From: Mobula hypostoma
Taxonomy: Eukaryota
Direction of reading: 5' to 3'
DNA length: 64,000 nt
Assembly (NCBI RefSeq): GCF_963921235.1
Contig: NC_086108.1
Location: forward strand, 93,870,001-93,934,000
Shown here: piece after piece, positions 1 through 57,879 of the stretch
Layout of the letters: each line of letters begins with the position of its first letter
Numbering within the stretch: position 1 is the first letter of the stretch
Position numbers and translations under genes: made by a program
Notes under the pieces: model-generated
Told to the model about the DNA's origin: nothing
What the model saw: only the letters and a program-made list of their open reading frames with translations
Databases searched by the model: none

Positions 1-239
1 TGCAAACAGCTACTTGGAGCTACGGGGGAGAGCTGAGTGTCCGGTGGGGGCCAAAGCTTAGAAAACTGTCCCAGAATTGACATAACAAGCCCCTTTGGAA
101 GAGAATATGGATACTATAATTAGTAAATTTTCAGATGACATCAAAATTGGTGACGCAGTGGAGAATGAAGGTGGTTTCAAAGATTAAAGCAGGATCCAGA
201 TACTTGGGAAGGCGGACAAACAAAAGGCAGGTGGAAGTT

Positions 240-275
240 AGTCCTGACGAAGGGTCTCGGCCTGAAACGTCGACT
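240..275 (+). ncRNA. Minimal type-I hammerhead ribozyme (intact core)
   Basis: AGTC-CTGACGA-AGG GTCTCGG CCT-GAAA-C-GTC^-GACT: stem I AGTC/GACT, CUGANGA and GAAA core, palindromic ACGT minimal stem III. Confidence 0.8.
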
Positions 276-1854
276 GCACCTCTTCCTACAGATGCTGCTT
301 GGCCTGCTGCGTTCACCAGCAACTTTGATGTGTGTTGCAGGTGGAATTTAACTCAGACGAATGTGACTTTGTGCATCTTGGGAAGTTAAACCAAGAGATG
401 ATAGAGACAGTGAAAGGCAGGGAGTGTTACTGACCAGACAGACATTGATTTATTGTCCATAACACCGCTGGTGTTTAGGGCAGCAATGAAGGTCCACCAT
501 CTCTGACGGTGTTCAGGATTTCCTTCACTCAAGTCAATAGCTTCCTCCCAGTTTTCACTACAGTCGGTCATGCAAGTCCCAGGTGGAGACTCAGGAATAC
601 CATTGAACTCAGATGTAGAAGAATTCCTCATTGCTGTTTCCATAACAGTTTTGTTTAACCAGTCAGTGTTGTTAGCACTGAGCTGAACCCCCGAACCTGG
701 AGGACCAGTGGACCACTCTTAGTCTGGCCTCTACCCTTTGACCTGTGTGGCATGGATAACCCTACCAAGAGCCAAAGCATCAAGCCCTGATGCCAGCCAA
801 CGTAGCTCTCTGGGTCACTGAGGCACGCAAGACTCCAAACCCAACAAGAAGGTTGTGGCCCTCTTGGAGGACAGAGGCCTTGGGATAAAAGAAAATATTT
901 CCCTGAAAGTGGTGACACAGGTGGACAGGGTCAAGAAGAACACATATGATGGAAAAGTCACAGGGAGATTAAAACATCGAAGTATACAGTGAAATGAATT
1001 ATCTGTTTTCTTGACCAACACAGACCAGAGGTACGCTGGGGGCAACCCGCAACAGTCGCCATGCTCCTGGTGCCAACATGGAATGCCTAAATGCCCACAT
1101 CTTAGTAACCCTAACCTATACATCTTTTGTAATGTAGTAGGGAACCCACATGGTCACGGGGAGAACATACATTCTCCTTACAGACAGCAGTGGGAATTGA
1201 ACCCAGTTTACCGATCAGCTGAGTTACTAAATATAGGAATTGGGACATTATGTTATGGTTGTAGAGTCTGGTGGCAAGGCTGCAAAAGAGCATCATTTGC
1301 AATTCTGGACTCTACACTATAGGAAGAATATAGAAAGTTGCAGGTGCAATTAGAACATTTAAAAGATACTCTGTCGAGGTCATGGTTAAGAAAAGTTTAC
1401 AGGGATATGGGCAAAATTCTGGCAATAGGTTAACATAGGTAGGCAACTTGGTCATCATGGATGAATTGAGACATACGGCCTGTTTCTCTGCTATAGAATT
1501 CCATGAATTTCTCCAAAAGGCACGTGGACAGAAGTTGGTAACATAATTTCCTATCTGAGTCTGAGTTCTGTCAAAGGGTCTTTGACCTGAAAAGTTCCAT
1601 CTGTTTCTCTTCCCACGAATGCAACTAGATATATAGAACATAAGACAGCACAGTACAGGCCCATCAGGGGAGCAGTTAGGATTAAGAGCCGTGAGAAAAC
1701 GTTGCAGCTCTATAAAACTCTGGTTAATATTGTGTTCAGTTCTGGTCGCCTCATGAAAGGAAGGATGTGAAGTCCTTAGAGAAGCTTCAGAGGAGATCCA
1801 AGTGACAGAAGTAATGCATTTTTCAAAGGTGCTAGCTTGCAAGGCAATCTCACC

Positions 1855-1989
1855 AACACATATACACACACACATATACACACACACACATACACACACA
1901 CACATACACACACACACACATACACACACACACACACACACATACACACACACACATACACACACACACACACACATACACACACACAC
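1855..1989. repeat. Compound (CA)n/(TA) microsatellite
   Basis: Directly visible; further CA/GT tracts at ~10965-11000 and ~22205-22238. Confidence 0.97.
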
Positions 1990-2168
1990 TTCTTCGGTTG
2001 TCCATCGAAATTTGACGATGAAGTCCACTCCTTTAGTGGTGAGATCTTTGGTGACTATACTGTCCTATCTTGGACCCACAAACTATGCAGATGCTGGAAA
2101 TTCAAGCAACACACACAAAAAATGCTGGTGAACGCAGCAGACCAGGCAGCATCTCTAGGAAAAGGTAC

Positions 2169-2204
2169 AGTCGATGTTTCGGGCCGAGACCCTTCGTCAG
2201 GACT
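2169..2204 (-). ncRNA. Minimal hammerhead ribozyme (AUC triplet)
   Basis: Reverse complement reads AGTC CTGACGA A GGG TCTCGG CCC GAAA C ATC GACT. Confidence 0.65.
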
Positions 2205-3031
2205 AACTGAAAGAAGAGATAGTAAGAGATTTGAAAGTGGGAGGGGGAGGGGGAGATTCAAAATGATAGGAGAAGACAGGAGGGGGAGGGATGGAGCCAA
2301 GAGCTGGACAGGTGATTGGCAAAGGGAATACAAGGCTGGAGAAGGGAGAGGATTTTGGGACGGGAAGCCTAAGGAGAAAGAAAGGGGGAGGGGAGGAAAA
2401 ATACCCAGAGGATGAGCAAGGAGTTACAGTGAAAAGGACAGAGGGAGAAAAAAAAGAGAGAAACAAAAGGGGGGGGGGGAGAAAGAAAAAAATAAATAAA
2501 TAAATAAATAAATAAATAAGGGATGGGGTACGAAGGGGAGGTGGGGCATTAACAGAAATTAGAGAAGTTGCTGCATGAACATTAACTTCTCTAACTTCCA
2601 TTAATGCCCCACCTGCTCTTCGTACCCCATCCCGTATTTATTTATTTATTTATTTATTTTCTCTTTTTTCCCTCTCTTTTTTCTCCCTCTGTCCCTCTCA
2701 CTCTAACTCCTTGTTCATCCTCTGGGTTTTCCCCTCTCCCCCTTTCTTTCTCCCTAGACTTCCCATCCCATGATCCTTCTCCAGCCTCGTATCCCCTTTG
2801 CCAATCACTTTCCAGCTCTTAGCTCCATCCCTCCCCCTCCTGTCTTCTCCTATCATTTTGGATCTCCCCCTCCCCCTCCCCCTTTCAACTCTCTTACTAT
2901 CTCTTCTTTCAGTTAGTCCTGACAAAGGGTCCCGGCCCGAAACATCAACTGTACTTCTTCCTATAGATGCAACACACATCAAAGTTGCTGGTGAACGTAG
3001 CAGGCCAGGCAGCATCTCTAGGAAGAGGTAC

Positions 3032-3067
3032 AGTCAACGTTTCAGGCTGAGACCCTTCGTCAGGACT
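3032..3067 (-). ncRNA. Minimal hammerhead ribozyme (intact core, GUU triplet)
   Basis: Reverse complement reads AGTC CTGACGA AGG GTCTCAG CCT GAAA C GTT GACT. Confidence 0.7.
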
Positions 3068-3571
3068 GCATCTGCAGAATTCCTGTTTGCGTTCTTCCTA
3101 TAGATGCTGCCTGGCCTGCTGTGTTCACCAGCATTTTTTGTGTGTGTTGCTTGCATTTCTCTTGGCTGTCTTCTGCTGTCTTTTGGTTGTTCACACATCC
3201 TTTAAAATAGAGTTGTTTTGCATAAAACCTCTGCAATCCTTGATGTTTGTCTTTTGTTTCACTCTTGCATAATGTTTGTACTGGCAGGAGCTCATGTCGT
3301 TCCTTTTTTACAGGCCCTTCGTAAATCAAGTGGTATCAGAGAAAAAAAGCTGAATTGCTCAACATGCGATTGTAAAATCTGCAACCCTGGCTTGGATATT
3401 TATTACTGTCTCATCACTGTGGCTGGCAAACTCCTGAAATTCCTCAACTAGCGGGAGAGTCGTTGATAAAAGCACTAGTGCAATTCACCTTCAACAGGGC
3501 GGTAAATACCAGCACAACACACACAAAATGCTGGAGGAACTCAGTAGGCCAGGCAGCAACTATAGAAATGT

Positions 3572-3973
3572 AAACACAAGATACTCTCCAGATGCTGGGG
3601 TCGAAGCAACACGCACAACACGCTGGAGGAACTCAGCAGGTCAGGCAGCATCCGTGGAAAAGATCGATCGACGCTTCGGGCCGCAACCCTTCGTCAGGAC
3701 TGAAGAGGGAGGGGGCAGAGGCCCTATAATGAAGGTGGGGGGAGGGTGGGAAGGAGAAGGCTGGTAAGTTCCAGGTGAAAAACCAGTAAGGGGAAAGATA
3801 AAGGGGTGGGGGAGGGGAGGCAGGGAGGTGATGGGCAGGAAAGGTGAAGGAGGAATAGGGGAAAACACAATGGGTAGTAGAAGGAGACGGAACTATGAGG
3901 GAGGTGATAGGCAGCTGGGGGTGGGGGCAGAGTGAAACTGGGATGGGGGAAGGGAGGGGGAGGGAATTACCAG
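3572..3973 (-). mobile_element. Penelope-like 3' fragment, different subfamily
   Basis: Variant terminal repeat with a degenerate hammerhead (GAAA>GAAG) at ~3666-3701. Confidence 0.75.
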
Positions 3974-4045
3974 TGGGGTTTAAGGCTGACTGAATGACAC
4001 TAGTGATGACCGAGAAGGAGTGTGAAGGTTTGTTGCTCACAAAGG

Positions 4046-5443: not shown

Positions 5444-6001
5444 GAAAAGCCTAACAACAGAGGGACCTTAATGCGGAAAAGAGGAGTGAAAACAAAACTG
5501 AGATACAAAACACTGTAGTTGCTGTAAATCTGAAATAAAGAGGATGCAGGAAATGTCCCATGGATCAGACAGCATCTGTGGATAATGTGCCAGGTTCCCC
5601 AGATCTCAGGATTACGCTACCTTGAAGCTGTGGCCTTGATAGGAGCTTTCATTTGGGGCTGCTTTCCAATAAAGTATTGCTTTATTGAGGTATCAATTCT
5701 GGGGACTCAGATTCATTTATTTATCACATGTACATCGAAAAATACAATGAAATTTGTGTCTTGGCAAAGAGTCTCGGCCTGAAATGTTGACTGTTTACTC
5801 TATTCCATAGATGCTGCTTGGCCTGCTGAGTTCCTCCAGCATTTTGTGTGTATTACTTTGATTTCCAGCATCTGCAGATTTTCTCTTGTGAATGAAATGA
5901 GCTGCTTGCGTTTACAAACACAAAGACGTGCTGAGCATAACCCGTAAGTATCACATACATTCTGGCGCCAACATAGCAGTCCCACCATACTGAGCAAAAC
6001 G

Positions 6002-7713: not shown

Positions 7714-8865
7714 CGCAAACACAAGGAAATCTGCAGATGCTGGAAATTTCAAGCAACACACACAAAATGCTGGTGAACCAGCAGGCCAGGCAGCATCTCT
7801 AGGAAGAGGTAGAGTCGACGTTTCGGGCCGAGACCCTTTGTCAGGACTAACTGAAAGAAGAGATAGTAAGAGATTTGAAAGGGGGAGGGGGAGATCTAAA
7901 ATGATAGGAGAAGACAGGAGGGCGAGGGATGGAGCCAAGAGCTGGAAAGTTGATTGGCAAAAGGGATACAAGGCTGGAGAAGGGAGAGGGTCATGGAAGC
8001 CTGGGGAGAAAGGAAGGGGGAGGGAAGCGCCAAAGGAAGATGGAGAGCAGGCAAGGAGTTTTTGTGAGAGGGACAGACAGAGAAAAAAAGAGAGGGGAAA
8101 AGGAGAAAATAAATAAATAAATAAGGGATGGGGTACGAGGGGGAGGTGGGGCATTAACGGAAGTTAGAGAAGTCAATGTTCATGCCATCAGGTTGGAGGC
8201 TACCCAGACGGAATATAAGGTGTTGTTCCTCCAACATGAGTGTGGCTTCATCTTGACAGTAGAGGAGGCCATGGATAGACATATCAGAATGGGAATGGGA
8301 TGTGGAATTAAAATGTGTGGCCACTGGGAGATCCTGCTTTCTCTGGCGGACAGAGCATAGGTGTTCAGAAAAACGGTCTCCCAGTCTGCGTCGGGTCTCA
8401 TCAATATATAGAAGGCCGCACCGGACGCAGTATATCACACCAGACGACTCACAGGTGAAGTGTCACCTCGCCTGGAAGGACTGTTTGGGGCCCTAAATGG
8501 TGGTAAGGGAGGAAGTGTAAGGGCATGTGTAGCACTTGTTCCACTTACAAGGATAAGTGCCGGGAGGGAGATTGGTGGGGAGGGATGGGGGGAACGAATG
8601 GACAAGGGAGTTGCGTAGGGAGCGATCCTTGCGGAATGCAGAGGTGGGGGGAGGGAAAGATGTGCTTAGTGGTGGGTTCCCGTTGGAGGTGGCGGAAGTT
8701 ACGGAGAATAATATGTTGGACCCAGAGGCTGGTGGGGTGGTAGGTGAGGACAAGGGGAACCCTATTCCTAGTGGGGTGGCGGGAGGATGGAGTGACAGCA
8801 GATGTGCGTGAAATGGGAGAAATGCGTTTGAGAGCAGAGTTGATGGTGGAGGAAGGGAAGCCCCT
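7714..8865 (-). mobile_element. Penelope-like element, 5'-truncated
   Basis: GIY-YIG ORF 8154-8438; 3' repeat; 12-bp TSD TATATTGAATCA (7702-7713 / 8866-8877). Confidence 0.92.
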
Positions 8866-10962: not shown

Positions 10963-11003
<41 letters not shown>

Positions 11004-12649
11004 CTTAAGGAACTCAGCAAGTCAGGCAGCATCTATTTAGGGGAATAATTTACCCCTCTGTACAGTAGATGCTACCCGGCATGCTGAGTTCCTCCAGCAG
11101 TCTGTGTGAGTTGCACCAAATAGATCTTTTCTTAACCTATTATCAAGCGCATACAGTCCTCAATGTTGTAAATTCTCTTTGCCCAACTACAGATGAAAGC
11201 TAACAACAAGTTGGCCTTTTTAAATCTTATCAAAGTGGCTCACCTAGCTCCACCTTCTCAAGGCAATTGAAGATAGACAGTTGCTGGTGAACGCAGCAGG
11301 CCAGGCAGCGTTCACCAGCAACTTTGATGTGAGTTGCTTGAATTTCCAGCATCTGCAGAATTCCTCGTGTTTATGAAGATAGACAGTAATTCCTGGGCTT
11401 GCCGAAATGCTCACGCCCTCTCAATGAATAAATGTAAGAGACTTATTTTTAGATGAATGATTAGATAAATGTAAAGGTTGCTGAATACGATTGGGGAGGT
11501 CAATTAGCCTCTCAAACCGACTCGGGGAATAGGCTTGAAAATTGACCATTCCAGTGTTCCCAAGGTAAGAAGGTGATAAAACAGCAGTCCTGTAAAGTTA
11601 ATTACCGTTTACTCAAGGGTAACTTTAATTCATTGCAAGGTGCAGGGGTGGGGGAACAGTGTACAGTACTACATAACTTCACTCACCCATCCCAACACTG
11701 GACTGATTCCACAACCTGTGGGCTCACTTTCAAGGTCTCTACAAATTGTATTCTCAATATTTATTATTGTTATTATTCTTTTGTTTTATTCTTTTTTTTG
11801 TATTTGCACAGTTTGTTGTCCGTGGCATACGAGTTATTTGTTCATCTTTGTTGTGTGCAGTTTCTGATTGATTACATTGCGTTTCTTTGTATCTACTATG
11901 AATGCCTGCAAGAAAATGAATCTCAGGGTGACATACATGTACTTTGATAATAAATTCACTTTGAAGTCTAAGTGGCAACACTAATTCATTTCAGTTGGTT
12001 TTTCAAACTGTTGTTTCTCTGCAACTACATATCGATTAAATAAAAGCACTCTCATGGGAGATGGGTTAACTGGTGCATTCACATTTCAGCAGGAGAGATC
12101 AATGTACATGTGGAGACAACAGTCCACATGTAGTGCTAAGGGGAGTCATTGTTCCAAAAGAAATAGATCCTTACAGAACACAAATCATTATAAAGTATTA
12201 AAAAAGGCAATATATTTCAACTTTTTAAAAGCTTGGCATAATTCATAGAAGTTTTTTTTTCCAATACAGCTGCTTGTGATCAAGGACCTTTGTACAAATG
12301 CTAGAGCATGAAAAACATTTTGACTACAGGCAAGGTGATCTTGGTACACTAAATCCAAAGCAACTGATCTGACTGAGAGCAGAGTTACTGCTGAACTGGT
12401 TCTTCTGCCTATTATAGATCATGTCTGGTTATTGACTTATAGAATAAGCTGCCACTCATAGCAGGGAAAGCTGTGTCAGTAGATTCTTCCAGCTTGTCTA
12501 ATTTCTCTTCCAGGCAGTTCCAGAAGATTATGTCCTAGCTGTGGAATTGGCTTCTTGACATTGAAGCATTCTGATGAAGATATCAGAGAACCTGAGTTCA
12601 CCACGTTTGTGTACTTGTTGATTTATTTCTGCTGCAATAAATCTATATT

Positions 12650-21133: not shown

Positions 21134-21782
21134 TTACTCCCACCATATTAGGTACACCAGTACACCTGTTCATTAATGCAGGTCTCTAACCCCCAGCCTA
21201 TTCTGTGGCAGCAAATCAATGCATTAAAGCATAGAGATCTGGTCAAGAGGTTCAGATCAAATATCAGAATGGGGAAGAAATGCGATCTAAGTGACCTTGA
21301 CCATGGAATGATTGCTGGTGCCAGATGGGACGGTTTGAGCATCTGAGAAACCACTGATCTTCTGGTATTTTCATGCACTACAGTCTCCAGAGCAGGGGTT
21401 CCCAATCTTTTGTTACGCCATGGAGCCCTGCCATTAACCAAGGGGTCCATGGACTCCAGGTTGGAAACCCCTGCTCTAGGGTTTACAAGGATGGGTGCGA
21501 AAAACAAAAACATATCCAGTGAGTGGCCATTCTGTGGGCAAAAATGCCTTGTTAATGAGAGGGGTCAGAGGAGAGTAGCCAGACTGGTTCAAGCTGACAG
21601 GAAGGGGACAGTAACTCAAATCACCACACGTTACAACAGTGGTGAGCGAAAGAGTATCCCTGGATGCACAACATGTCGAACCTTGAACTGAACGGGCTAC
21701 AGCAACAGAAAACCACAAAGATACACTCACTGGCCACTTTTTTTAGATATAGGAGCTACCTAATAAAGTGGCCACTGAGTGG
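21134..21782 (+). mobile_element. Internally deleted Tc1/mariner element
   Basis: Transposase N-terminus MGKKCDLSD...GQRRVARLVQADRK; TIR-like ATAAAGTGGCCACTGAGTG; MITE nested inside. Confidence 0.75.
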
Positions 21783-22204
21783 ATGTTAATCCTAATCTGT
21801 AATCGGGTACAAGACCCACAGAGAGAGTTAAGGAGTTAAAAAAAATAAAATCACACAATGCTGGCAGAATTGTCAGTAACTAGAGTGTCTGCTGCTCCCA
21901 CTCACAGAGCGGTCAGTAACTAGAGGGTCTGATTCAAGATATCTGGCATGCGCGTCAGAAGTTGAGGTGAAAATATTTTGTACCTAATAATAAACTTCAA
22001 TTGACATAGTATCTCTGATATAAAAAAGAATTGCCAAGGTACTGCACAGGACTCTGGACAAACAAAGAACTGGTACCAAATCTTACCTATTAGTCCAGAT
22101 GCATATAGGTGTTAAGAAACATCTTAAAAGAGGGGCGAGTTAGAAAATCCAGAGCACAGATACAAAATGCTGGAAGAATTCAGCGGATCAGGACCCCTGA
22201 CCCG

Positions 22205-32431: not shown

Positions 32432-34620
32432 CCTTTACTCCCCTCCTTTACTCTGTTTCCCCATGACTGTGTCGCCACCCACAGCTCCAATCTGCTAATT
32501 AAATTTGCTGATGATACTACACTTATTGGACTAATCTCAAATAATAATGAGGCAGCCTACAGAGAAGAAGTGATGAAATGCTTTGAGAGGTTGGTCATGA
32601 CTAGACTGAACTCCTGCCTCAGCAAGGACTTGGACCCATTGTAAGTTGCCTATTCCCACAATAGGTCAATGGCAGATGTAATCTCAATGGCTCTCCACAC
32701 GGCTTTAGACCACCTAGACAACACAAACACCTACATCAGGATGCTGTTCATTGACTATAGCTCAGCACTTAATACCATCATTCCCACAGTCCTGATTGAG
32801 AAGTTGCAGAACCTGGGCCTCTGTACCTCCCTCTGCAATTGGATCCTCGACTTCCTAACCGGTAGACCACAATCTGTGTGGATTGGTGATAACATATCCT
32901 CTTCGCTGATGATCAACAATGGTGCACCTCAGGGGTGTGTGCTTAGCCCACTGCTCTACTCTTTATATACCCATGACTGTGTGACTAGGCATAGCTGAAA
33001 TACCATCTATAAATCTGCTGACGATACAACCACAGTTGGTAGAATCTCAGGCGGTGACAAGAGGGCATACAGGAGGAAGATATGCCGACTAGTGGAGTGG
33101 TGTCGCAGCAACAACCTGGCACTCAACGTCAGTAAGACAAAGGAGCTGATTGTGGACTTCAGGAAGGGTAAGATGAAGGAACACATACCAATCCTCATAG
33201 AAGGATCAGAAGTGGAGAGAATGAGCAGCTTCAAGTTCCTGGATCTAACCTGATCCCAACATATTGATGCAGTTATAAAGAAGGCAAGACAGTGGCTATA
33301 CTTTATTAGGAGTTTGAAGAAATTTGGCATGTCAACAAATACCCTCAAAAACTTCTATAGTTGTACTATGGAGAGCGTTCTGACAGGTTGCATCACTGTC
33401 TGGTATGGAGGGGCTACTGCACAGGACTGAAAGAAGCTGCAGAAGGTTGTAAATCTAGTCAGCTCCATCTTGGGTACTAGCCTACAAAGTACCCAGGATA
33501 TCTTTAGGGAGCGGTGTCTCAGAAAGGCAGTGTCCATTATTAAGGACCCCCAGCACACAGGGCATGCCCTTTTCTCACTGTTACCATCAGGTAGGAGGTA
33601 CAGAAGCCTGAAGGCACACACTCAGCGATTCAGGAACAGCTTCTTCCCCTCTGCCATCCGATTCCTAAATGGACATTGAATCTTTGGACACTACTTCATT
33701 TTTAAATATACAGTATCTGTGTTTTTGAATTTTTTTACATCTATTCAACATACGTAATATTTTTACTTATTTTTTTCTCTCTGCTAGATTATGTATTACT
33801 TTGAACTGCTGCTGGTAAGTTAACAAATTTCAAGTTGCATGCCGGTGATAATAAACCTGATTTTGATTCTGATTCTGACACAGTGGTGTCAAGAAAATAA
33901 CCTTTCCCTCAAAGTCGCAAAAACAAAGGAGCTGGTTGTGGACTGCAGGAGGAATGAAGACAGGCTAACCCCTATGGACATCAGTGGATCTGGGGTTGAG
34001 AGGGTGAACAGCTTTAAGTTCCTCTGCATACACATCACCGAGGATCTCACGTGGTCTGTACATAACGAATGTGTGGTGAAAAAGGCACAACAGTACCTTT
34101 TTCACCCTGGACGGTTGAGGAAGTTTGGTATGGCTCCCCAAATCCTAAGAAATTTCTACAAGGGCACAACTGGGAGCATCCTGACTGGCTGCATCACTGC
34201 CTGGTATGGGAACTGTACTTCCCTCAATCGCAGGGCTCTGCAGAGAGTGGTGCGGACAGCCCAGCGCATCTGTAGATGTGAACTTCCCACTATCCCGGAC
34301 ACTTACAAAGACAGGTGTGTAAAAAGGGCCCGAAGGATCATTGGAAACACAAGTCACCCTAACCACAAACTGTTCCAGCTGCTACCATTCGGGAAACAGT
34401 ACTGCAGCATAAAAGCCAGGACCAACAGGCTCCGGGACAGCTTCTTCCACCAGGCCATCAGACTGATTAATTCATGCTGATACAATTGTATTTCTATGTT
34501 ACATTGACTGTCCTGTTGTACATACTATTTATCATAAATTACTATAAATTGCACATTGCACACTTAGATGGAGACGTAATGTAAAGATTTTTACTCCTCA
34601 TGTATATGAAGGATGTAGGT
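32432..34620 (+). mobile_element. Two nested Rex1/Babar-type LINE RT fragments
   Basis: Outer copy (KFADDTT...EEV | TQWCQENNL...) interrupted by an inner copy ~32571-33877 ([22 protein letters not shown] tail); outer tail resumes at 37746 after the hAT. Confidence 0.85.
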
Positions 34621-37600
34621 CAGGGGTCGGCAACCTTTTTGCCTCTGTGGGCCGGATCGCATATTAATGAGCGGACGGTGGGCCAGATAATTGCCATAAA
34701 AAACTTGAAATATGGGAATTATCCATTTAAATACATTTAGTTATGTTTTGCCTTAAATTAATGAACAACACATGCTAGAAAATCATTTGTGCTTAACCAA
34801 GGATGCCAATTAGAAATCAAAGAACTCAATTTAGTTGCAATTTATTTCAATCAAGGCATCTTTTGAATCTATTAAAAGGACACAAGGAATCTTTAAAAAT
34901 AAAATGTATGAACATGATGCATTGAATGGTGGTAAATTAAGTATAATAAAAAAGAAAATTTTAATGCAAACAGTCCATACATCACTGTGAAACTTGATGT
35001 TGTTTGTTACTTGAAAGCTTCTCAATATTGGGTGTCAGACTCGTTGATGCCAAGAGCAAGACATTATCCAGATGGGCATCAGTCAATCTTGTTCTCAAAT
35101 GGTTCTTGGTGTGCTTCATTTTTGAAAATAATTGCTCACACAGATAAGTACTGCCAAACAATGAGGCCATCTTTTTTGCATGGTCCACTAAGTTAGGATA
35201 CTTCCCACTTGGATGAATATATTTTCTGTAGAAGTCAAGCACTGACACATCTTCAGAATGAAGTTTTGATCTCAATATGCCGTCACACTGCATCTCAATC
35301 AATTCCACTTGAAAAATTTCTGAAGCAGTGTCCACTTTTTGAGACAATACGTTTTGAGACTTCGTAGCGGGCACAGGTATTTCCTTCATTTTCACTGCTT
35401 TTCTTGGCAAAAAATGACGTAATGAATTAGTCCTTACTCTTAATAATTTCTCCTTTGGCTCCTCCTACTTCCTCCAAACTAAAGGTGTAGCTATGGGCAC
35501 CCGTATGGGTCCTAGCTATGCCTGTCTTTTTGTTGGCTTTGTGGAACAATCTATGTTCCAAACCTATTCTAGTATCTGTCCCCCACTTTTCCTTCGCTAC
35601 ATCGACGACTGCATTGGCGCTGCTTCCCGCACGCATGCTGAGCTCATTGACTTCATTAACTTTGCCTCCAACTTTCACCCCGCCCTCAAGTTTACCTGGT
35701 CCATTTCTGACACCTCCCTCCCCTTTCTAGATCTTTCTGTCTCTATCCCTGGAGACAGCTTAGCTACTGATATCTACTATAAGCCTACTGACTCTCACAG
35801 CTATCTGGACTATTCCTCGTCTCACCCTGTCTCTTGCAAAAATGCCACCGCTTTCTCGCAATTCCTCTGTCTCCGCCGCACCTGCTGTCAGGATGAGGCT
35901 TTTCATTCCAGGACGGGGGAGATGGCCTCCTTTTTTAAAGAAAGGGGCTTCCGTTCCTCCACTATCAACTCTGCTCTCAGACGCATCTCCCCCATTTCAC
36001 GCACATCTGCTCTCACTCCATCCTCCCATCACCCCACTAGGAATAGGGTTCCCCTGGTCCTCACCTACCACCCCACCAGCCTCCAGGTCCAACATATAAT
36101 TCTCTGTAACTTCCGCCACCTCCAACAGGATCCCACCACTAAGCACATCTTTCCCTCCCCCCACCTCTGCTTTCCGCAGGGATCACTCCCTACGCGACTC
36201 CCTTGTCCATTCGTTCCCCCCCCATCCCTCCCCACTGATCTCCCTCCTGGCACTTATCCGTGTAAGCGGAACAAGTGCTACAAATGCCCTTACACTTCCT
36301 CCCTTACACTTCCTCCCTTACCACCATTCAGGGCCCCAGACAGTCCTTCCAGGTGAGGCAACACTTCACCTGTGAGTCGACTGGGGTGATATACTGCGTC
36401 CGGTGCTCCCGATGTGGCCTTCTATATATTGGCGAGACCCGACGCAGACTGGGAGATCGTTTTGCTGAACACCTATGCTCTGTCCGCCAGAGAAAGCAGG
36501 ATCTCCCAGTGGCCACACATTTTAATTCCACATCCCATTTCCATTCTGATATGTCTATCCATGACCTCCTCTACTGTAAAGATGAAGCCACACTCAGGTT
36601 GGAGGAACAACACCTTATATTCCGTCTGGGTAGCCTCCAACCTGATGGCATGAACATTGACTTCTCTAACTTCTGCTAATGCCCCACCTCCCCCTTGTAC
36701 CCCAACTGTTATTTATTTATATACACACATTCTTTCTCTCTCTCTCCTTTTTCTCCCTCTGTCCCTCTGACTATACCCCTTGCCCATCCTCTGGGTTTTT
36801 TCCCCCCTCCCCCCTTGTCTTTCTTCCCGGACCTCCTGTCCCATGATCCTCTCATATCCCTTTTGCCAATCACCTGTCCAGCTCTTGGCTCCATCCCTCC
36901 CCCTCCTGTCTTCTCCTATCATTTCGGATCTCCCCCTCCCCCTCCCACTTTCAAATCTCTTACTAGCTCTTCCTTCAGTTAGTCCTGACGAAGGGTCTCG
37001 GCCCGAAACGTGGACTGCACCTCTTCCTAGAGATGCTGCCTGGCCTGCTGCGTTCACCAGCAACTTTGATGTGTGTTGTTTGTTTTCCGAAACTAGCCTT
37101 CATTTGCTCAACTTCATCTTTCCTTGCTTGCCCAGTAAACTTGTTAAAATTTCCACTATGGTGGGTCTCGTAATGTTGCCTGATATTTGCCACCTTCTTC
37201 ACAGCAATATTTTCTCTGCAAATGAGACAAACTGGTTTCACAGCTTGCTCAATGAAGTAATCTAGTGTCCAACTGTCTTGGAAATTTCAGCACTCAGCGT
37301 CTACCTTCCTGCGTTTTGCATTCATTGCCATTGGAATTTTTTTCTTTGATTTTATTTTGAAATGTGAGTTATTCAACAAGTATCGTAGCACATGTAAATA
37401 TCTGGATATTTAGCGCGGATTTCTTGTTAAAACACAGTGACACTGTTTCTGTTTACAAATTTGAACGATCCCATCTGAAAACCTGCGCATGCACGGAGAT
37501 TATCTAATACATATTAACAAGGTAGTCTGCCTTCCCGTCATTCGTATATACCAGTGTTTGGTTTGGAACAAAACAGAACCTGGGGCCAGTGTAACAAGAT

Positions 37601-38644: not shown

Positions 38645-40140
38645 CGTCATAAGTGGGGGTGTTGGTGCGGACCCAAATGCAAGACACAGACACTGAAGTA
38701 CTAGGAACAGGACAGGACTAGAGACTAGAGTTATGGATGTGTCTGGATGCAGACTAGGAGCTGGGACAAGAACTCAGACTTGGGCTAGGACATTGGCTAA
38801 GCAAGTGAGACCAGGACTAGGAACTGCGAACTGGGAGCCTGGGCTTGGACTCCAAGCCAGAGACTGGACAAGGACCCAGAACCTAGGTCTTGACTCGAGC
38901 TCGGACCCCGGAACTAGGTGAGGATGACATGGCTTGGGTTCCTTGAGGTGAGGACATGACGAGGCTTGGGTTCGGACTCCAAGCCAAAGACTGGACAAGG
39001 ACCCAAAACCTGGGTCTTGACTCGGGCTCGAACTCCGGAACTAGGCGAAGACATGATGTGGTCTTAGGATTCAGGACTAGGCGAGGCTACAGGACTGGAC
39101 AAGAGACTCCTGGACAAGACGAGGGAACTCCAGTACAGGACGAAGCACATGGACAGGATGAGGCACATGGACAGGAAGAGAACACGAAGCCTTGAATTGG
39201 TACTCAGGAACAGCCAAGCCTTGGACTTGGAACAACAGGATCCTCGGAACCTTGGACTTGGGACGATAGGAACGCAGAACACAGAGCCGTGGTCTTGGGG
39301 AGGACAGGAACACAGGGCCTTGGTCTAGAGCATGGGAACACGGAGCCTTGGACTTGAGAGACGGGAACACAGGGACATGGAACACAGAGCCAGAACCCCT
39401 CCTTGGAAACAGGACGTAGGGCCAGGACTCATACAGAATGCTGAACACGATGAGACGGTTCCCAACACTAGGTAGCAGCAAACGGCCGGACCTACCTAGC
39501 AAAGGCGTGGACTCAGAGACAGTTTCCAACACTAGGTAGCGGCAAACGGCCAGACCTACCTAGCGAAGGTGTGGACACAGAGATGGCTCCCAACACTAGG
39601 TAGCGGCAAACGGCCAGACCTACCTAGCAAAGGCGCGGACACAGAGACAGTTCCCAACACTAGGTAGCAGTAAATGGCCAGACCTACCTAGTGAAGGCGT
39701 GGACACAGAGACAGTACCAACTCAATGATAGACAGTTCCTTATCCTGATACAGCAAGGCTCCAGTCTCGCTCTGGTGGTTGAACTTGACAAGGTTGCAGG
39801 CAAGGCTCCAGAAGGAAGGGGAAGGGAAAGGAACAGTCCAGCCTCAGGGTAACAGCAAAGATGGCCTGGCTTACCCAACAGAGGCAGGACAGGAAGGGAC
39901 AGATCCAACTGCAGGGTAACAGCAAAGACAGCCTGACTTACCCCACAGAGGCGAGGACAGGATACTGACGAAACGAACCAGCACCCACACTCGAACCCAG
40001 GGCCACTTATATTCCCAGCGCCAAGACAAGCATCAGGTACCTATGATTAAGCCCAACTGAAACAAGTAGTAGTAGTAGAAACAAGGTCCTCAGACCAGAC
40101 TGTAAACCGGAACACAGACCTCACGGACCAGACCAGGACA
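38645..40140 (-). mobile_element. Solo LTR related to 27089-27895, expanded by internal tandem repeats
   Basis: Homologous ends in opposite orientation; 5-bp TSD GTCAA (38640-38644 / 40141-40145); splits a Rex-type LINE fragment. Confidence 0.82.
39449..39715. repeat. 64-bp minisatellite x4 inside the solo LTR
   Basis: CCAACACTAGGTAG at 39462, 39526, 39590 and 39654; each unit contains CTAGGTAG...CTACCTAG. Confidence 0.9.
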
Positions 40141-41122
40141 GTCAAAGAGGATGTTGGAAGGATGGGTGAGATCCTTGATAATACTAAGGGCCCTGCGTAC
40201 ACAGTGCTCCTGACAAATGTCCCTGATGGATGGAAGGAAGACCCCTATGACCCTCGCAGCCATTCTCACATTCCTTTTTTTCCCCAGTCTGATGAAAATT
40301 CATTATCCCATTTCCCTCATTTTCATCACTCATTTTCCAGTCACCACAGTAGTTCCAACTAGCACCACCTTTCCACGATCCAGCAGCCACCTAACCAGTC
40401 ACACTCCAGCAACCCACACTCAACCCCAAGGCTACTTATATTCCAAGCCCCAAGATGGAAATCAGGTGCCTATGATTAACTCACTGAAACGAGGGACAGC
40501 TGGAAGACCCAGAGTCCTGAGTCCATGGACTGGACCGTAAACCAGAATGCGGACTTCACCGACCGGACCATGACATCAAGGATCAGTCCCTTTAGAAGCA
40601 TCTGCTGGATTCTGGTTTCAGTCCACAGTGTTGCAGCAGGTGATAGTATGACTATTATAGGTCAGTCTAGATTGCTCCATGTTGAATGCTAAGGCAATAT
40701 TTTATTGGTTTAGGGTCTCTCCATCAGCAAGGACATCTATATGATGTCTCAAAAAGGCAATATTGATCATTAAGAACCCTCCCCCCCCCCAACATCTGGG
40801 CCAAGCCTTCTCCATTCTTCCATTAGGCAGGAGGTACAGGAGCCTGAAGACCACACCTTTAGGTTCAACAGCACCTTCTTTCCCACTACCATCAGGTTCT
40901 TGAACTGACCTGAATAACCCTAACACGATCTGGAATTTTTTTTCACTTTTAACTTAGATTGATGGCCTTATCTTTTGTTTATTTTGCCTTGTACATTATG
41001 TATACTTTATCTTAATATGTTTATGTTGTAACAACAAGAATTCTGCAGATGCTGGAATTTCAAGCAACACACATCAAAGTTGCTGGTGAACGCAGCAGGC
41101 CAGGCAGCATCTCTAGGAAGAG

Positions 41123-41156
41123 GTCCTGACGAAGGGTCTCCGCCTGAAACGTCGAC
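41123..41156 (+). ncRNA. Minimal type-I hammerhead ribozyme (intact core) at the apex of a fold-back insertion
   Basis: GTC-CTGACGA-AGG GTCTCCG CCT-GAAA-C-GTC^-GAC. Confidence 0.78.
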
Positions 41157-41473
41157 TGTACCTCTTCCTAGGGATGCTGCCTGGCCTGCTGCGTTCACCA
41201 GCAACTTTGCTGTGTGTTGCATGTTTATGTTGTGTTTCTTCTGTTTGCAATGTAGAGTGCTGCTGCTGCAAAAAAGACACAATTTCATGGTATTTATACC
41301 TTGTACATAATATATAGATATAGATATCTGTGAATTTGAATTTTAAGTCGGAGGAAGCTGAGCCGCGGCTCCACGTTACTGCTTTGATGGGCGTCACACA
41401 CAAGATGCTGGAGGAACTCAGCAGGCCAGACAGCAGCTATGGAAAGTAGTCGACGTTTCCGGCCGAGACCCTA

Positions 41474-41665
41474 CAGGGGCAGCCAACCTTTTAGATTCCA
41501 CGCGTCAATTTTTTCACACACGAGTTCAGATGTGCCTTACAGCTCTTGTACCCCCACAATTCTTGTAAAAATATGTTAATATAGAACGTGCGTGAAAAAA
41601 AATCGCATCTGAACTCGTGCGTGAAAAAACCTGACGCATGTAATGTAAAAGGCTGCCCACCCCCG
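41474..41665. mobile_element. Palindromic hAT-type MITE directly upstream of the GCLM core promoter
   Basis: CAGGGGCAGCCAACCTTTT / AAAAGGCTGCCCACCCCCG termini; internal inverted arms CACGAGTTCAGATG / CATCTGAACTCGTG. Confidence 0.7.
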
Positions 41666-41914
41666 CTTCCTCAGGACCATGGGGCGGCGCTTCCCGCTCT
41701 GCTGCTGACATTGCGCAGTGAGCGGCGTTTGCGGACCGAAGGGGCGGGGCCGTGGCTCTGCAGAGGGCGGGGCCATTTCGCAGAGTGACAGGCCGTCAGC
41801 CAGCGTCGCGATTGGATCGGGGTCGGTCGGTGACGCGAGCCGGCGGCTGCACGTTTTGCGACGGACGGGGCAGAAGAAGGGGAGCGAGGGCTCGGTACGG
41901 CAGCTGCCGCCGCG
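41666..41914 (+). promoter_or_regulatory. GCLM: GCLM CpG-island promoter / 5' UTR
   Basis: GC boxes GGGGCGGGGC (41741) and GAGGGCGGGGC (41763); inverted CCAAT (ATTGG, 41811); ARE core TGACATTGC (41706-41714) within TGCTGACATTGC; no TATA seen. Confidence 0.8.
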
Positions 41915-45300: not shown

Positions 45301-46756
45301 GTGACACTAATTTTTCCCACAGCCTATCTACATCCCTTTATAAGCTTCTTGTGTTGCCTTAACAACTTTCTTAGTGTCTTCATGAAATTTAGCTACCATA
45401 TCCTTGCCTTTGTTCATGTTATTTATATAAACTGTAAAAATAGAAGTTTTGGCATTGATCATAGGCACACCACTCCTGCTAACAAGAAAAAGAACATTCT
45501 CTTCTACACTGCTTCCTGTTAGCCAACCAATGTTTTGTCAACCATGCAATTTTATTTTTCAGAAAAACATTTAATACAACATCTTATCAAAAGTATTTTA
45601 GAAATCTAGGCGTAGTGTACCAGTTCCTCTTTGACCACAACACATGTAACATCTCTAGAGAATTCTTCCACAAAACCGTACAGGCATTTGCTGAGGATTT
45701 TGTGTAGAAGCTTGTAGCATTTTCTCAATGATAGGCTGACAGGTCTGCAGCTTCCTTTTTTTTTAAGAATAATGCACGCAAAATGCTAGAAGAACTCAGC
45801 AGGTTGGGTTGTATCTATGGAGAGGGGAATAAACAGTCAACATTTTGAGCTGAGCCCCTTCATCAGGACACTAATGAAGGGTCTCAGCCGGAAACTCTCA
45901 TCACTGTCCTGATGAAGGGCTCAGCTCAAATCATCACCTGTTTTATTTCTCTCCATAGGTACTGCCTGATAATTTTCCTGAGCTCCTCCCTCACTTCCAA
46001 TTCCCAATTCAGAACAATTTCTTGATATCAATGATTTGAGAAAACTACCTTTTCGCTTTGCACAGAGCTAGCTAGTTCTGATGTAAAACCCATAACATCA
46101 ACTCAGTTTTACTCTTTCCGTGTAATGTCTTATGTGCTGTATAATTCCAGCACCCTTTTTGTTTCGAATCTTCAGTTATTGCAATATTTTCATGTTTTTA
46201 TTCTCTCATTCTTCTATATCTCAAATCAATTTTCACTTAGACATTCTCGGCAATCCCTCCTCTCCCCTGAAATTTAAAACATAAAATAAGCTGTTAACCA
46301 TTTGGAACATTTAACTGTGTTTTTATCTGCACAGGTGCTCCCTAACTTGAATCTATCCAGTACTTTCTATTTTATACTGGGATTAGAATAGCCTGCTGTC
46401 AGATTAATTTCAGAACGTACAGCTTTACGAAACTACGAATTCCTTTTGACAACTTTTGTAGTCTATATGTAGATAAAAATCACCATAATTAAGACTGTAC
46501 CTTCCTGACAAACTCCTATTACTTATCCTTCTATTCCCCCATCTGTGTTTTAAGCAGTGCGTTGAGTATAAGTAAGAAAGTTAATTTGATATGATATAGG
46601 TTTGGTGATGAGCATCAATATCTTGGCCCAGTCTTTGTAGACGGAAGCGCAGCACTATATCTGGGTCATACCTCAGGTGACTATTATTGTTTCATCGCCT
46701 TTCTCATCCTATTATATGAGCCAAATGTAGAAATCTGAGACTGTCGTAAAGGAAAT

Positions 46757-49118: not shown

Positions 49119-50781
49119 GCAACACACATAAAAATTGCAGGTGAACGCAGCAGGCCAGGCAGCATCTATAGGAAGAGGTACAGTAGACGTTTCGGGCCGA
49201 GACCCTTTGTCAGGACGAATTGAAAGAAGAGATTTGAAAGTGGGAGGGGGAGATCCAAAATGATAGTGGGGGAGGGATGGAGCTAAGAGCTGCAAAGTTG
49301 ACTGGCAAAAGGGATGTGAGAGGATCTTGGGACAGGAGGCCTAGGGAGAAAGAAAGGGGGAGGGGGGAAGCCCAGAAGATGGGCCAGGAGTATAGTGAGA
49401 GGACAGAGGGAGAAAAAGGAGAGAGGGGAAAAAAAAATTAGTAATAACGGATGGGGTACAGCTTATCTACTGATGTCTACTATAAGCCTATGAACTCTCA
49501 CAGCTACCTGGACTATTCCTCTTCTCACCCTGTCTCTTGCAAAAATGCCATCCCCTTCTCGCAATTCCTCCGTCTCCGCCGCATCTGCTCTCAGGATGAG
49601 GCTTTTCATTCCAGGATGAAGGAGGTGTCCTTTTTTTAAAGAAAGGGGCTTCCCTTCCTCCACCATCAACTCTGCTCTCAAACGCATCTCTCCCATTTCA
49701 CGCACATCTGCTCTCACTCCATCCTCCCACCACCCCACTAGGAATATGGTTCCCCTTGTCCTCACCTACCACCCCACCAGCCTCTGGGTCCAACATATAA
49801 TTCTCCGTAACTTCCGCCACCTCCAACAGGATCCCACCACTAAGCACATCTTTCCCTCCCCCTCCCCCTCTGCTTTCTGCAGGGATCGCTCCCTATGTGA
49901 CTCCCTTGTCCATTCGTTCCCCCTCCCCCCCCCACATCCCTTCCCACAGATCTCCCTCCCAGCACTTATCCTTGTCAGCGGAACAAGTGCTACACATGCC
50001 CTTACACTTCCTTCCTCACCACCATTCAAGGCCCCAGACAGTCCTTCCAGGTGAGGCAACACTTCACCTGTGAGTCGGCTGGGGTGATGTACTGCGTCCG
50101 GTGCTCCCGATGCGGCCTATATATTGGCGAGACCCGAAACAGGCTGGGAGACTGTTTCGCTGAACACCTACGGTCTCTCCATCAGAGAAAGCAGGATCTC
50201 CCAGTCGCCACACATTTTAATTCCACATCCCATCCATTCCCATTCTGATGTGTCTATCCACAGCCTTCTCTACTGTAAAGATGAAGCCACACTCAGGTTG
50301 GAGGAACAACACATATTCAGTCTGGGTAACCTCCAACCTGATGGCATGAACATTGACTTCTCTAACTTCTGTTAATGCCCCACCTCCCCTTTGTACCCCA
50401 TGAGTTATTTATTTATTTTCTCTCTCTCCTTTTTCTCCCTCTGTCCCTCTCACTATACTCCTTGCCCATCCTCTGGGCTTCCCCCCTCCCCGTTTCTTTC
50501 TCCCTAGGCCTCCTGCCTCATGATCCTCTTGTATCCCTTTTGCCAATCAACTTTCCAGCTCTTAGCTCCATCCCTCCTCCTCCTGTCTTCTATCATTTCG
50601 GATCTCCCCCTCCCACTTTCAAATCTCTTACTATCTCTTCTTTCAGTTAGTCCTGACGAAGGGTCTCGGCCCGAAACATTGACTGTACCTCTTCCTAGAG
50701 ATGCTGCCTGGCCTGCTGCGTTCACCAGCAATTTTTGTGTGTGTTGCTTGAAATTCTAGCATCTGCAGATTTCCTCGTGTT
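49119..50781 (+). mobile_element. Penelope-like element with an inverted 5' copy of its 3' repeat, in GCLM intron 3
   Basis: Minus-orientation 3' repeat 49119-~49458, then plus RT C-terminus/GIY-YIG and 3' repeat; 15-bp TSD TGCACATGGAATAGA (49104-49118 / 50782-50796). Confidence 0.92.
50649..50684 (+). ncRNA. Minimal hammerhead ribozyme (AUU triplet), sense to GCLM pre-mRNA
   Basis: AGTC CTGACGA A GGG TCTCGG CCC GAAA C ATT GACT. Confidence 0.65.
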
Positions 50782-52191: not shown

Positions 52192-52248
52192 CCAAACTTT
52201 TCCTCAATGATCCTGACTCCTCAAGCATTAAGGATGCTGTGGAAAAAG
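52192..52248 (+). CDS. GCLM: GCLM coding exon 4 (AKLFLNDPDSSSIKDAVEK)
   Basis: TTTTAATGCAG acceptor, AAG|GTATGT donor; matches AKLFIVESNSSSSTRSAVDM; 57 nt, phase fits both neighbours; not in the ORF track. Confidence 0.93.
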
Positions 52249-54595: not shown

Positions 54596-55700
54596 CAGCG
54601 GTCCCCAACCACCGGGCCGCAAAGCATGTGCTACTGGGCCGCGAGGAAATCATATGATTTGGCGTTATGAGTCAGCTTCATTCCCTGTCACGGGCGGCAC
54701 CTTTCCTCATTCCCTGTCACGCCCACTGTTGAGCTTGAACGCACGCGAGGTCATTACCTGCGCATCGTCCATGTCAGCGCAGGGAGATCAACTCCTCGAG
54801 CTTGCAAATAACGGCGGGCTGAGAAGTATGTTTGACATAACATCTCTGCCGGTATTCTGGATCAAAGTCAAGGCTACATATCCTGAGATAGCCATGAAAG
54901 CACTGAAAATGTTGCTTCCATTTCCAACATTTTTCTGCAAAGCGGAGTTTTCTGCAATGAATGCAACAAAAACTAAATTGCGGAATAGACTGGACATAAG
55001 GAACCCCGTTCGAATATCTCTGTCTCCCATCACCCCTCGATAGGACCGTCTCCTTGCAGGGAAACAAGCCCAGGGCTCCCACTGATTCAGCGATATTGGT
55101 GTGTTGCAATGATTTTATATGTTCATGTGGGGAAAATATGTGCTGTGCGTTTAATATCCAAACGTTACTTAAAATGTTATGATATTGACTTACTTATAAC
55201 AATTACATCACGGAAACAGGCCATCTTGGCCCTTCTAGTCCGTGCCGAACACTACTCTCACCTAGTCCCACCAACCTGCCATCAGCCCATAACCCTCCAT
55301 TACTTTCCTGTCCATATGCCTATCCAATTTTTCTTTAAATGATGATATCGAACCTGCTTCTGCCACTTCTACTGGAAGTTCGTTCAACATGTACTTCAAG
55401 CTCCCCTGCCCTCCCCTGATAATTGACATCACTATATTCATGTGAGGAAAACGTGCGCTGTGTGTTTAATATTAAATTCGTTAGATAAACCCTTTTAGAA
55501 ACAAAATTGAGTGTATAAGCTGCTTATCACTTGTATTCCGGGTGTAATTAACAACCCTTCCCCCCCCCCCCCAGAACAGAATCGCCAAAAACGATTTGCA
55601 GGAAAAAAAAATCGGCAGGTACACGCATGGGCAGGTCACGTATGCGCACTGGTGCCCGCGCAAGGCTTCATGGCCATTGTGGTCTTTCTCTGGGTAAACA
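54596..55700 (+). mobile_element. Second copy of the Charlie/Buster-type hAT, GCLM intron 4
   Basis: CAGCGGTCCCCAACC start; same transposase C-terminal fragment; 3' end truncated; CR1-tail-like insert inside. Confidence 0.8.
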
Positions 55701-56468
55701 CAATTTTGTTTCACCAATCAGGGTTGTTAGCCTGAGTCTGGATGACCAGTGAACCACATAGTCTGGCCTCCAGCCAACACAACTGTCCGGGTCATTCAGG
55801 CACACAAGCCTCCAAACCACAACTAAGTTGTGGTCCTCTTGGAGAAGGTATTGAAGGTGATTGTGATTAAATGTGTTGGTATTTTAGCCAAATATGAGTA
55901 TATGGACTAAATGGCTCCGATTGTGTTTTATTTGCCTGGTTATGTATGTCATCATTTGTTAGAGAACATTTATGAGCTCCTGACAACATCGAGACAATCA
56001 ATATCCATACTTTTATATTGAAACTATTTTACTTTGTGTTATATATGACTGTGTTATTAGTGAGTAATCTTTGCACACTGACAAAGGCACCAGCCATTTA
56101 ATATAGCATCTGGAAAAAATAGCTTGTTTATAATGTTTCAAATCCACTATAAATGTTAAATTTGATCAGTTTTGTCATTTGTATGTAAGCAATATTAGTT
56201 CTACGATGCCTGCAGTACTATATTTGGTTAGTCATTTCTGGACTGCTTGCTAAATGTCTTGCTAGTTAATATCTACACATTGTCAAACGTGGAACATTAA
56301 ATCACTCCTTCTTCCCCCATATTCCTTCCCACCCCCACTGACTACTACCATCTTAAACCCATTTACATGGTAAGCTTCCTCTTGAAGTCCAGTAGTTTTC
56401 CACCAATATTGTTTACTGTCATGTTATCCTGTTGTTTACTGTATAACTGCATTGTTTAAAAGATTATA

Positions 56469-57879
56469 CAGTGGATTTGGTTAATGGGCCATTGGTTAAT
56501 CAGGACAGTCACTTATTTGGGACAACTCTTAAGGAGCAAAAACTAATTGAGTAAAGAGCCAGATTTCCCTTCATTAAGCTGGATACTGTACTGCTTAATT
56601 GAGGCAGGAGACTGTTCCTGGATAGTTTCTAACTAGCATCAGACACGTGTACTTATGTGACTGTTGGATACTAAATCATGCTTAGAGCGGAGGATCTCCC
56701 AGTGGCCACACATTTTAATTCCACGTCCCATTCCCATTCTGACATGTCTATCCACGGCCGCCTCTACTGTCAAGATGAAGCCACTCTCAGGTTGGAGGAA
56801 CAACACCTTATATTCCGTCTGGGTAACCTCCAACCAGATGGCATGAATATTGACTTTAACTTCCGTTAATGCTCCTCCTCCCCTTCATACCCCATCCCTT
56901 ATTTATTTATTTTATATATTTTTTATTTTTTCCCCCTTTTTTCTCTCTCTGTCCCTCTCACTATAACTCCTTGCCTGCTCTCCACCCTCCAGGCTCCCCT
57001 CCCCCCTTTCTCCCCAGGCTTCCCGTCCCATGATACTCCCTTCTCCAGCTCTTAGATCCACCCCTCCACTCCTGTCTTTCCTATCATTTCAGATCTCCCC
57101 CTCCCCCTCCCACTTTCAAATCTCTTATTATCTCTTCTTTCAGTTAGTCCTGACGAAGGGTCTTGGCCCAAAATGTTGACTGTACCTCTTCCTATAGATG
57201 CTGCCTGGTCTGCTGCGTTCACCAGCACTTTTTGTGTGTGTGTTGCTTGAATTTCCAGCATCTGCAGATTTCCTAGTGTCTGAGTTTTTAAATGGTATTA
57301 GTTGCATGTGTTTGTGTGCAAAAAGCAGAGATCTTTGTCACTGATATTCGGCAAGAAATAAGCGGTAAGACAATACAGTACTGCTTTGCTCACTGTGGTT
57401 TCAAGCATTCAGGCTTGGAGATGCCAGATGGCCAGGAGTGAAAACTAAACAATTTCACTACTGGAAGTTGGGAGCTACAAAGAATTTGAAGGTTACAATG
57501 AAAATGAAGATTTGGAGGATGCAGTCATCAATTGCATTGTTTGAAATAATCCATTATCTAAACCAGGTGCCTGTGCTGATTTTGCTTATTTATGGTAAAT
57601 CAAAAGAACATGGCAGTGTGCAGGTACACTGGGTGAATTCCTCCATTAACAATTAGGAACTAATTCAGTTTATAGTATTGTAGTAGAATTGATAGTGTTC
57701 TAATTTGTTCTCTATTTAAATACATAATTTGTTACTCAGTTAAATGGTAACTTGCCTTTTTTATATCTTTTTAACTACTTCCATATTTTAACAACTTTAA
57801 CTTCAGCGAATTGAGGCAGCCACTTAATTGGGCCAAAACATACTGGTCCCGATGTGTCCCAATGAACTGGTTTCCACTG
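56469..57879. mobile_element. Tigger/pogo-like non-autonomous element ending 44 bp before GCLM exon 5
   Basis: TA-CAGTGGA...TCCACTG-TA termini; split by the Penelope fragment. Confidence 0.6.
56688..57280 (+). mobile_element. Penelope-like 3' fragment in GCLM intron 4
   Basis: DLPVATHFNSTSHSHSDM...QPDGMNIDF plus 3' repeat with a mutated hammerhead; nested in a Tigger-like element. Confidence 0.88.

Follow-up and report, generated by a model that had tools for sequence, protein, structure and literature searches.

A 64-kb window of Mobula hypostoma with dispersed minimal hammerhead motifs in truncated copies of a Penelope-like element

We analysed a stretch of 64,000 nucleotides from Mobula hypostoma (contig NC_086108.1, positions 93,870,001 to 93,934,000; hereafter the window), in which a short motif resembling the hammerhead ribozyme recurs many times. 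An earlier note, made from the letters alone, had ascribed it to Penelope elements. The sites very probably represent a minimal type-I hammerhead motif (min-HHR) residing in the pseudo-long terminal repeat (pLTR) of a very abundant Neptune-type, endonuclease-bearing (EN+) Penelope-like element (PLE), with the copies lacking an open reading frame (ORF) being truncated insertions of the same element.

Every site listed in the earlier note was recovered by a loose scan and a profile search. Run on the full window with filters off, a covariance model from 11 rows (two of them window copies) returned 14 matches at E<=1. The 12 matches with E<0.01 are the 12 sites of the earlier note. They are located at 239-276, 2914-2951, 36980-37017, 41121-41158, 50648-50685 and 57145-57182 on the plus strand, and at 2168-2205, 3031-3068, 3665-3702, 7812-7849, 45834-45871 and 49181-49218 on the minus strand. 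Because inverted pairs belong together, the 12 sites correspond to about 9-10 insertion events. About five further degenerate or partial copies were detected in the window with nhmmer, near 1564, 5758, 14838, 41472 and 45906. A strict descriptor matched the window three times and gave 0 matches in 60 of 60 order-3 Markov simulations. The search with Rfam Hammerhead_1, proposed earlier as a check, would miss these copies, since Rfam returned no hammerhead among 25 matches at E<=10 in the window; the miRNA matches of Rfam are the inverted junctions between copies. Searches with DNA patterns found nothing in viral contigs or metagenome contigs, and the viral contigs gave one weak locus for the endonuclease and none with alignments.

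The majority form of the motif consists of the helix I arm AGUC, the CUGACGA box, an unpaired A, a 4-bp helix II with a four-base loop, GAAA, C-G-U-C, and the helix I arm GACU, where positions 15.1-16.1 form the loopless palindrome ACGU. Among the 13 tabulated copies, the canonical letter is the majority at each core position (CUGAnGA, GAAA, UH), and the unpaired A between positions 9 and 10.1 is found in all 13. The G10.1-C11.1 pair occurs in 9/13 copies and in 11/11 family rows, and has become G-U through CpG loss in the other 4/13; ACGU, the majority palindrome, is kept in 6/13. The extra A, G10.1-C11.1 and the loopless helix III fit the published consensus, confirming the motif as a minimal type-I hammerhead with a palindromic ACGU. 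The complete core letters (CUGAnGA+GAAA+UH) are retained in five copies (C3 at 244, 2200, 3063, 41126 and 50653), matching the previous count of about five intact cores. Both core and ACGU are kept in three of them (244, 3063 and 41126), all with G10.1-U11.1, and none of the 13 is fully identical to the majority motif.

The inactivating changes had been attributed to CpG-type decay, which the counts bear out. When the cells of the 10 main-subfamily copies are scored as CpG or other, 20/100 CpG cells have changed versus 11/410 other cells (Fisher p 2e-8). The CpG letters of the core are not spared (8/30 changed versus 12/70 outside the core, p 0.29). Position 17 reads C in 96, 95, 81 and 51% of the depth in the contigs of four sequencing runs from related material; because C17 is the majority in all four, the G17 of the copy at 36985 is decay. 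The motif is intact in the source elements and decaying in the window copies, which are relics. Of the "ribozyme population" announced earlier, the many ORF-less copies stand, whereas the word ribozyme overstates their condition and the genome-wide size is extrapolated from a single window. The copies and related insertions are as follows.

237..336, plus strand: 5'-truncated PLE insertion of 100 bp; min-HHR 239-276, short tail, core and ACGU intact, G10.1-U11.1; predicted cut after 271; 10-bp target duplication 227-236 / 337-346
2086..2568, minus strand: pLTR copy; min-HHR 2168-2205, core letters intact, ACAU for ACGU; inverted partner of 2573-2970
2573..2970, plus strand: pLTR copy; decayed min-HHR 2914-2951 (G8A, ACAU, helix I change); ends prematurely, 24 nt past position 17
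2970..3068, minus strand: motif with short tail; min-HHR 3031-3068 with U17 and G10.1-U11.1, both core and ACGU being intact; cut predicted after 3036 (minus); within a rearranged cluster including the tail fragment 3093-3153 (plus)
3583..3975, minus strand: second-subfamily pLTR (different 3' untranslated part); min-HHR 3665-3702 (minus) with A15.1G, a different loop 2 and a 3-bp helix I; long tail
5756..5890, plus strand: older degenerate motif with long tail; possible 8-bp target duplication
7714..8865, minus strand: 5'-truncated PLE with reverse transcriptase (RT) thumb/linker, GIY-YIG, pLTR, min-HHR 7812-7849 (G8A) and long tail; 12-bp target duplication
11282..11373, unstranded: inverted insertion of tail sequence alone, motif absent; 14-bp target duplication
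35418..36356, plus strand: C-terminal half of RT (MGTRMGP, YIDD) followed by thumb and CX4CXXC linker; truncated at the 5' end, with a frame break close to a 14-bp duplication (36287-36321)
36266..36679, plus strand: GIY-YIG endonuclease with CCHH (C47, C50, H69 and H85 conserved); Pfam PF01541 E 6.9e-5, 23.5 bits (cut-off 22.6)
36680..37079, plus strand: pLTR of the longest copy; min-HHR 36980-37017 (C17G), C3 306 nt past the stop, short tail
41030..41220, unstranded: inverted composite with 13-bp target duplication; minus-strand long tail (to 41124) joined to plus-strand min-HHR 41121-41158 and short tail; G10.1-U11.1 with both core and ACGU intact, cut predicted after 41153
45780..45990, unstranded: old inverted pair with decayed motifs, 45834-45871 (minus) and about 45904-45940 (plus), both G12A
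49119..50781, unstranded: inverted composite with 15-bp target duplication; minus pLTR copy with short tail (motif 49181-49218, G8A) and, joined to it at about 49459, plus RT/EN/pLTR copy (motif 50648-50685, ACAU, U17, long tail)
56684..57282, plus strand: 5'-truncated PLE with GIY-YIG end, pLTR, min-HHR 57145-57182 (G12A, AUGU, U17) and long tail

The motif had been said to sit either in the repeat downstream of the RT/GIY-YIG ORF or alone, and the catalogue agrees. The endonuclease or RT lies upstream in four copies (7844, 36985, 50653 and 57150), only the pLTR in four others (2200, 2919, 49213 and 3697, the last with the pLTR of its own subfamily), and the remaining copies start at or near the motif. 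In the four ORF-bearing copies, the motif is in sense orientation to the ORF and 306 nt past the GIY-YIG stop codon, which is the pLTR position.

All these copies share common 3' ends and differ in their 5' ends, forming a ladder from the RT to the tail with lengths from 1.66 kb down to <70 bp. Relative to position 17, the 3' ends are found at about 66 nt in 5/12 and at 100-103 nt in 5/12, with one at 87 and one at 24 (cut). The two main end classes, 36 nt apart, correspond to the optional tail of 30-40 bp published for PLEs. Among the 16 blocks tested, five are flanked by clear target duplications of 10-15 bp. Inverted pairs occupy 2086-2970, 11282-11373, 41030-41220 and 49119-50781; in at least two of the three with target duplications, the ends differ in agreement with the published pattern, just one of them bearing the long tail. 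In three of the four runs, the summed contig depth is 6- to 53-fold higher at the tail than at the RT end; in the fourth, which is more distant, the depth falls past the stop codon, and the loose ends there reveal other subfamilies. These marks identify the solo copies as 5'-truncated insertions of the element rather than a separate non-coding family.

Homologous elements carry the same motif at the same place. We collected the best 80 of 456 related loci from metagenome contigs, at 35-64% RT identity, and considered as eligible the 40 of 81 loci in which the sequence extends past the end of the endonuclease by 250 nt or more; the core was sought 30-290 nt downstream. An exact core is present in 15/40 eligible loci, 83-133 nt after the endonuclease, and a core with one mismatch in 5/40, as opposed to 0/40 in antisense and 1/140 in distal windows. 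One related family possesses the motif printed for the Neptune element of Acropora digitifera (Cervera and De la Pena 2014, PMC4209133).

For covariation, we kept one representative per family, dropping 9/15 downstream matches as same-family duplicates, some with mismatches, and added three motifs (L035, L052 and L063) after inspection. The first three helix I pairs form in 30/30 cells of 10 families versus 14.4 on permutation; the seven families found by position alone give 21/21 pairs (permutation p 0.0007). Over the 11 rows, 93.2% of the cells are paired with 28 two-sided changes, a result reached by 0/500 shuffles, and slid controls give 15-46%. Related sequences can beat shuffles even without structure, although the arms here differ letter by letter between families. 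Two-sided changes across families affect 4/4 pairs of helix I and 2/4 pairs of helix II, whereas the catalytic letters remain invariant between families. Two of the added motifs belong to full-length relatives: L052 (region 323-350) has an open frame of 1049 codons with its first ATG inside the core, and L063 (region 319-365) one of 1139 codons with its first ATG 19 nt upstream of the core. At the position of the L052 ATG, the window family reads ACG.

As for the carrier, the longest copy (35420-37079) combines the C-terminal half of RT, a linker of the CX2-5CXXC type, here CX4CXXC, between RT and EN, and the GIY-YIG domain above the Pfam cut-off. The RT fragment alone stays below the Pfam RT cut-off (E 0.24) but is matched by 151 longer proteins, most of the 120 listed having RT and the same endonuclease region. 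By identity, the closest among the listed matches are two proteins of the bamboo shark Chiloscyllium punctatum (65-67%), with which the fragment forms the starred clade (100/100) in a tree without clade-labelled rows; this points to a cartilaginous fish as host. The Penelope origin proposed previously stands, by the CCHH-bearing GIY-YIG domain as well as by the RT fragment. Judged by sequence, the carrier appears to be an EN+ PLE with a Neptune-type Cys linker; this linker, common to Neptune and Nematis (Craig et al. 2021, PMC8557442), points to one of these two clades.

Several observations weigh against this picture. Target duplications are unusable at 9/16 blocks and doubtful at 2/16, and the longest copy itself shows only a possible 9-bp duplication, offset and doubtful. 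No core is found in 20/40 eligible loci even at one mismatch per box; old or truncated copies would explain these. The earlier note had made stem covariation across subfamilies decisive: it is present across families as described, whereas compensatory change is absent among the window's own copies. Non-CpG core letters changed in 0/90 cells versus 11/320 elsewhere (p 0.13), a weak hint of constraint on copies regarded as relics. The putative Neptune label derives from the shared linker and the likeness of the motif rather than from a tree with labelled references. Finally, no full-length element with two pLTRs was found in the window, where all copies are 5'-truncated.

The marks of insertion suggest a possible course of events. 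The RT of the element would start cDNA at one of two sites, about 66 or about 102 nt past the cut site, and would usually stop early, so that insertions longer than about 100 nt would nearly all carry the motif. With a start so near the motif, most truncated copies would include it, and early stopping alone would yield many ORF-less copies. Since the copies span the cut site, their templates would be uncut or re-ligated RNA. In tandem master elements, the pLTR would combine the promoter region and the motif with the beginning of the following unit, and the motif would be under selection in those that are active. By analogy with other PLEs, from which cleavage by this family is inferred, the master motif would probably cleave slowly and only as a dimer via ACGU:ACGU, with an element protein, or both. 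Dimer cleavage of PLE motifs was reportedly observed by Lunse et al. In the predicted monomer fold, GACG pairs with CGUC into an inactive hairpin, both in the three intact window copies and in 6/9 related families, and the predicted active dimer scores worse than two inactive monomers in 16/16 cases by nearest-neighbour energies, which ignore tertiary contacts. This predicted fold fits slow, partner- or protein-dependent cleavage. After insertion, the copies would become methylated and decay neutrally, most of them being inert.

The same hairpin and unfavourable dimer would also agree with the idea that the motif is a conserved RNA structure for binding or initiation, such as protein docking, a translation start or a splice region, which is not cut in vivo. 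We regard this as rather unlikely. It would suit the inserted copies spanning the cut site and the first ATG inside the core of L052; in Anolis, moreover, the motif is dispensable for in vitro insertion and no RNA-seq ends fall at the cut site (Frangieh et al. 2024, PMC11167929). Invariant catalytic letters next to swapping helix letters speak against it, as do the low dimer cleavage and the protein-assisted cleavage published for other PLE motifs (PMC4209133, PMC11167929). For the origin of the copies, such a role can hold together with the truncated-insertion explanation.

We consider it improbable to a high degree that the ORF-less units are a separate non-autonomous family, resembling non-LTR retrozymes or short interspersed nuclear elements, multiplying through their own self-cleaved circular RNA. 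One cartilaginous fish is reported to possess retrozymes, which derive from pLTRs (Li, Clavereau and Pollet 2026, bioRxiv 10.64898/2026.07.22.740005), three main-subfamily copies start within 5 nt of the helix I 5' arm (237, 3067 and 41123), and in run X4 a contig shows an opposite-strand joint where this arm lies (36982). Such starts amount to three safe cases, too few to show clustering, and the apparent helix-I starts of other-subfamily copies were rejected as artefacts of their different upstream sequence. Against a separate family, no tandem array with the motif exists among the 26 Tandem Repeats Finder rows of the window, 0/6 tail-only segments begin at the cut site (their starts lie 7-35 nt past it), the 5' ends form the ladder described above, and the short copies have tails, inversions and target duplications in common with ORF-bearing copies.

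It is very improbable that the host has kept some dispersed intact copies for cutting pre-mRNAs in trans-dimers, even though 3/13 copies retain core and palindrome, their high density makes partners likely, and a plus-strand exon resembling FTHFS (see below) suggests an intronic window. Core CpG letters decay at least as fast as those elsewhere (8/30 versus 12/70), and G10.1-C11.1 has been lost in all three intact copies. Chance likeness to a hammerhead inside a repeat, which the Rfam result and the fact that one ancestor copied often is one observation might seem to favour, is refuted: families at 35-64% RT identity share both the core and its location and show compensatory pairs in helix I.

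Other features of the window include a pyrimidine tract followed by CAG, resembling a 3' splice site, directly before the helix I 5' arm in the main subfamily (36950-36978, plus strand, the CAG at 36976-36978) and within this arm in the second (3702-3725, minus strand). The Drosophila Penelope intron ends at the equivalent place before helix I. The tract and CAG are absent in the invertebrate relatives, and 15 joints among 1507 in the contigs of the four runs include none ending at the possible acceptor. On the minus strand, 2168-3702 holds three same-strand motifs within 1.5 kb, of which those at 3063 and 3697 might pair within a single transcript (ACGU with GCGU), but the former has an inverted copy next to it by which it would probably be sequestered.

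The FTHFS-like exon lies at about 24250-24431 on the plus strand (Pfam PF01268 E 7e-5, below cut-off), with a GT donor at 24432; no solved relative was found for it. The window may lie in introns of an MTHFD1-like gene. A hAT transposase dimerisation domain is located at 34985-35464 (minus strand, PF05699 E 4e-6), and the insertion point of the longest PLE copy is at or within this DNA transposon relic. Fragments of other non-LTR retrotransposons occur at 30498-31055 (minus), 32645-32998 (plus) and 33824-34480 (plus), matching RVT_1 (E 4e-11) and the ALKBH8_N model (E 7e-22, 6e-5). Tandem arrays of 59-67 bp units at 39277-39962 are unrelated to the motif. Short elements with long terminal inverted repeats, similar to miniature inverted-repeat transposable elements, are found at 41471-41667 and 21719-21786, the first interrupting a PLE motif copy at 41472.

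The kind has been known since 2014, including motifs that are mostly solo, come from truncated elements and number thousands per genome (PMC4209133); it is ordinary, and only its abundance stands out. If the three strict matches per 64 kb are typical and the genome is assumed to measure a few Gb, core-intact min-HHRs in this lineage may number around 100,000, and these could pair via ACGU and cut host transcripts, a reading we consider very unlikely. If it were true, the number would be ten or more times the published vertebrate counts, and copies in the same or in different pre-mRNAs could pair. The 5' junctions would then form a fossil record testing cleavage in vivo by an excess of copies starting right after position 17, and would also show whether the ribozyme is remodelled by a splice acceptor immediately in front of helix I. 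Scale could matter, as a large number of insertions permits statistics that small families cannot provide, on 5' ends at the cut site, on the strand bias of intact versus broken copies in introns and on selection in master lineages. Cleavage by PLE ribozymes is slow, protein-assisted and dispensable for in vitro insertion (PMC11167929).

The PLE min-HHRs of Cervera and De la Pena (2014) showed no monomer cleavage and low dimer cleavage; about 4,000 motifs were counted in coelacanth and about 9,000 in Xenopus, mostly single and tied to truncated elements (PMC4209133), to be set against three strict matches in 64 kb here. The window motif shares with them the core, the unpaired base after A9, G10.1-C11.1, the loopless palindromic helix III, the short helix I and the pLTR position, and its copies are likewise mostly solo and tied to truncated elements; its helix II of 4 bp is at the short end of their range. 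Shark, skate, Callorhinchus and Leucoraja were not found in the searchable supplement of that paper. Subscription journals aside, we found no account of these motifs in cartilaginous fish beyond the retrozyme preprint; a whale-shark preprint mentions expanded PLEs. Like the animal non-LTR retrozymes, the window copies are dispersed monomers with a pLTR-derived type-I motif. Retrozymes are defined by tandem units in the preprint, and the window copies, being 5'-truncated element ends with no tandem units, are therefore not retrozymes by that definition (bioRxiv 10.64898/2026.07.22.740005).

In the Poseidon element PAc of Anolis carolinensis, two internal RT start sites define a tail of 30-40 bp, and uncut RNA is the main insertion substrate (PMC11167929). 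The window family resembles it in the motif lying upstream of two inferred RT starts and in uncut RNA as the inferred template. PAc belongs to the Poseidon clade and, unlike the window family, lacks the Cys linker; its RT starts lie 111-118 nt into the ORF. With the EN+ PLEs of the Neptune clade, the window element has in common the RT, the CX2-5CXXC linker and the C-terminal GIY-YIG with CCHH, as well as the inverted 5'-truncated partner with a tail at one end only; in comparison with the PLEs described there, no microsatellite targeting is evident at the five clear target duplications (PMC8557442).

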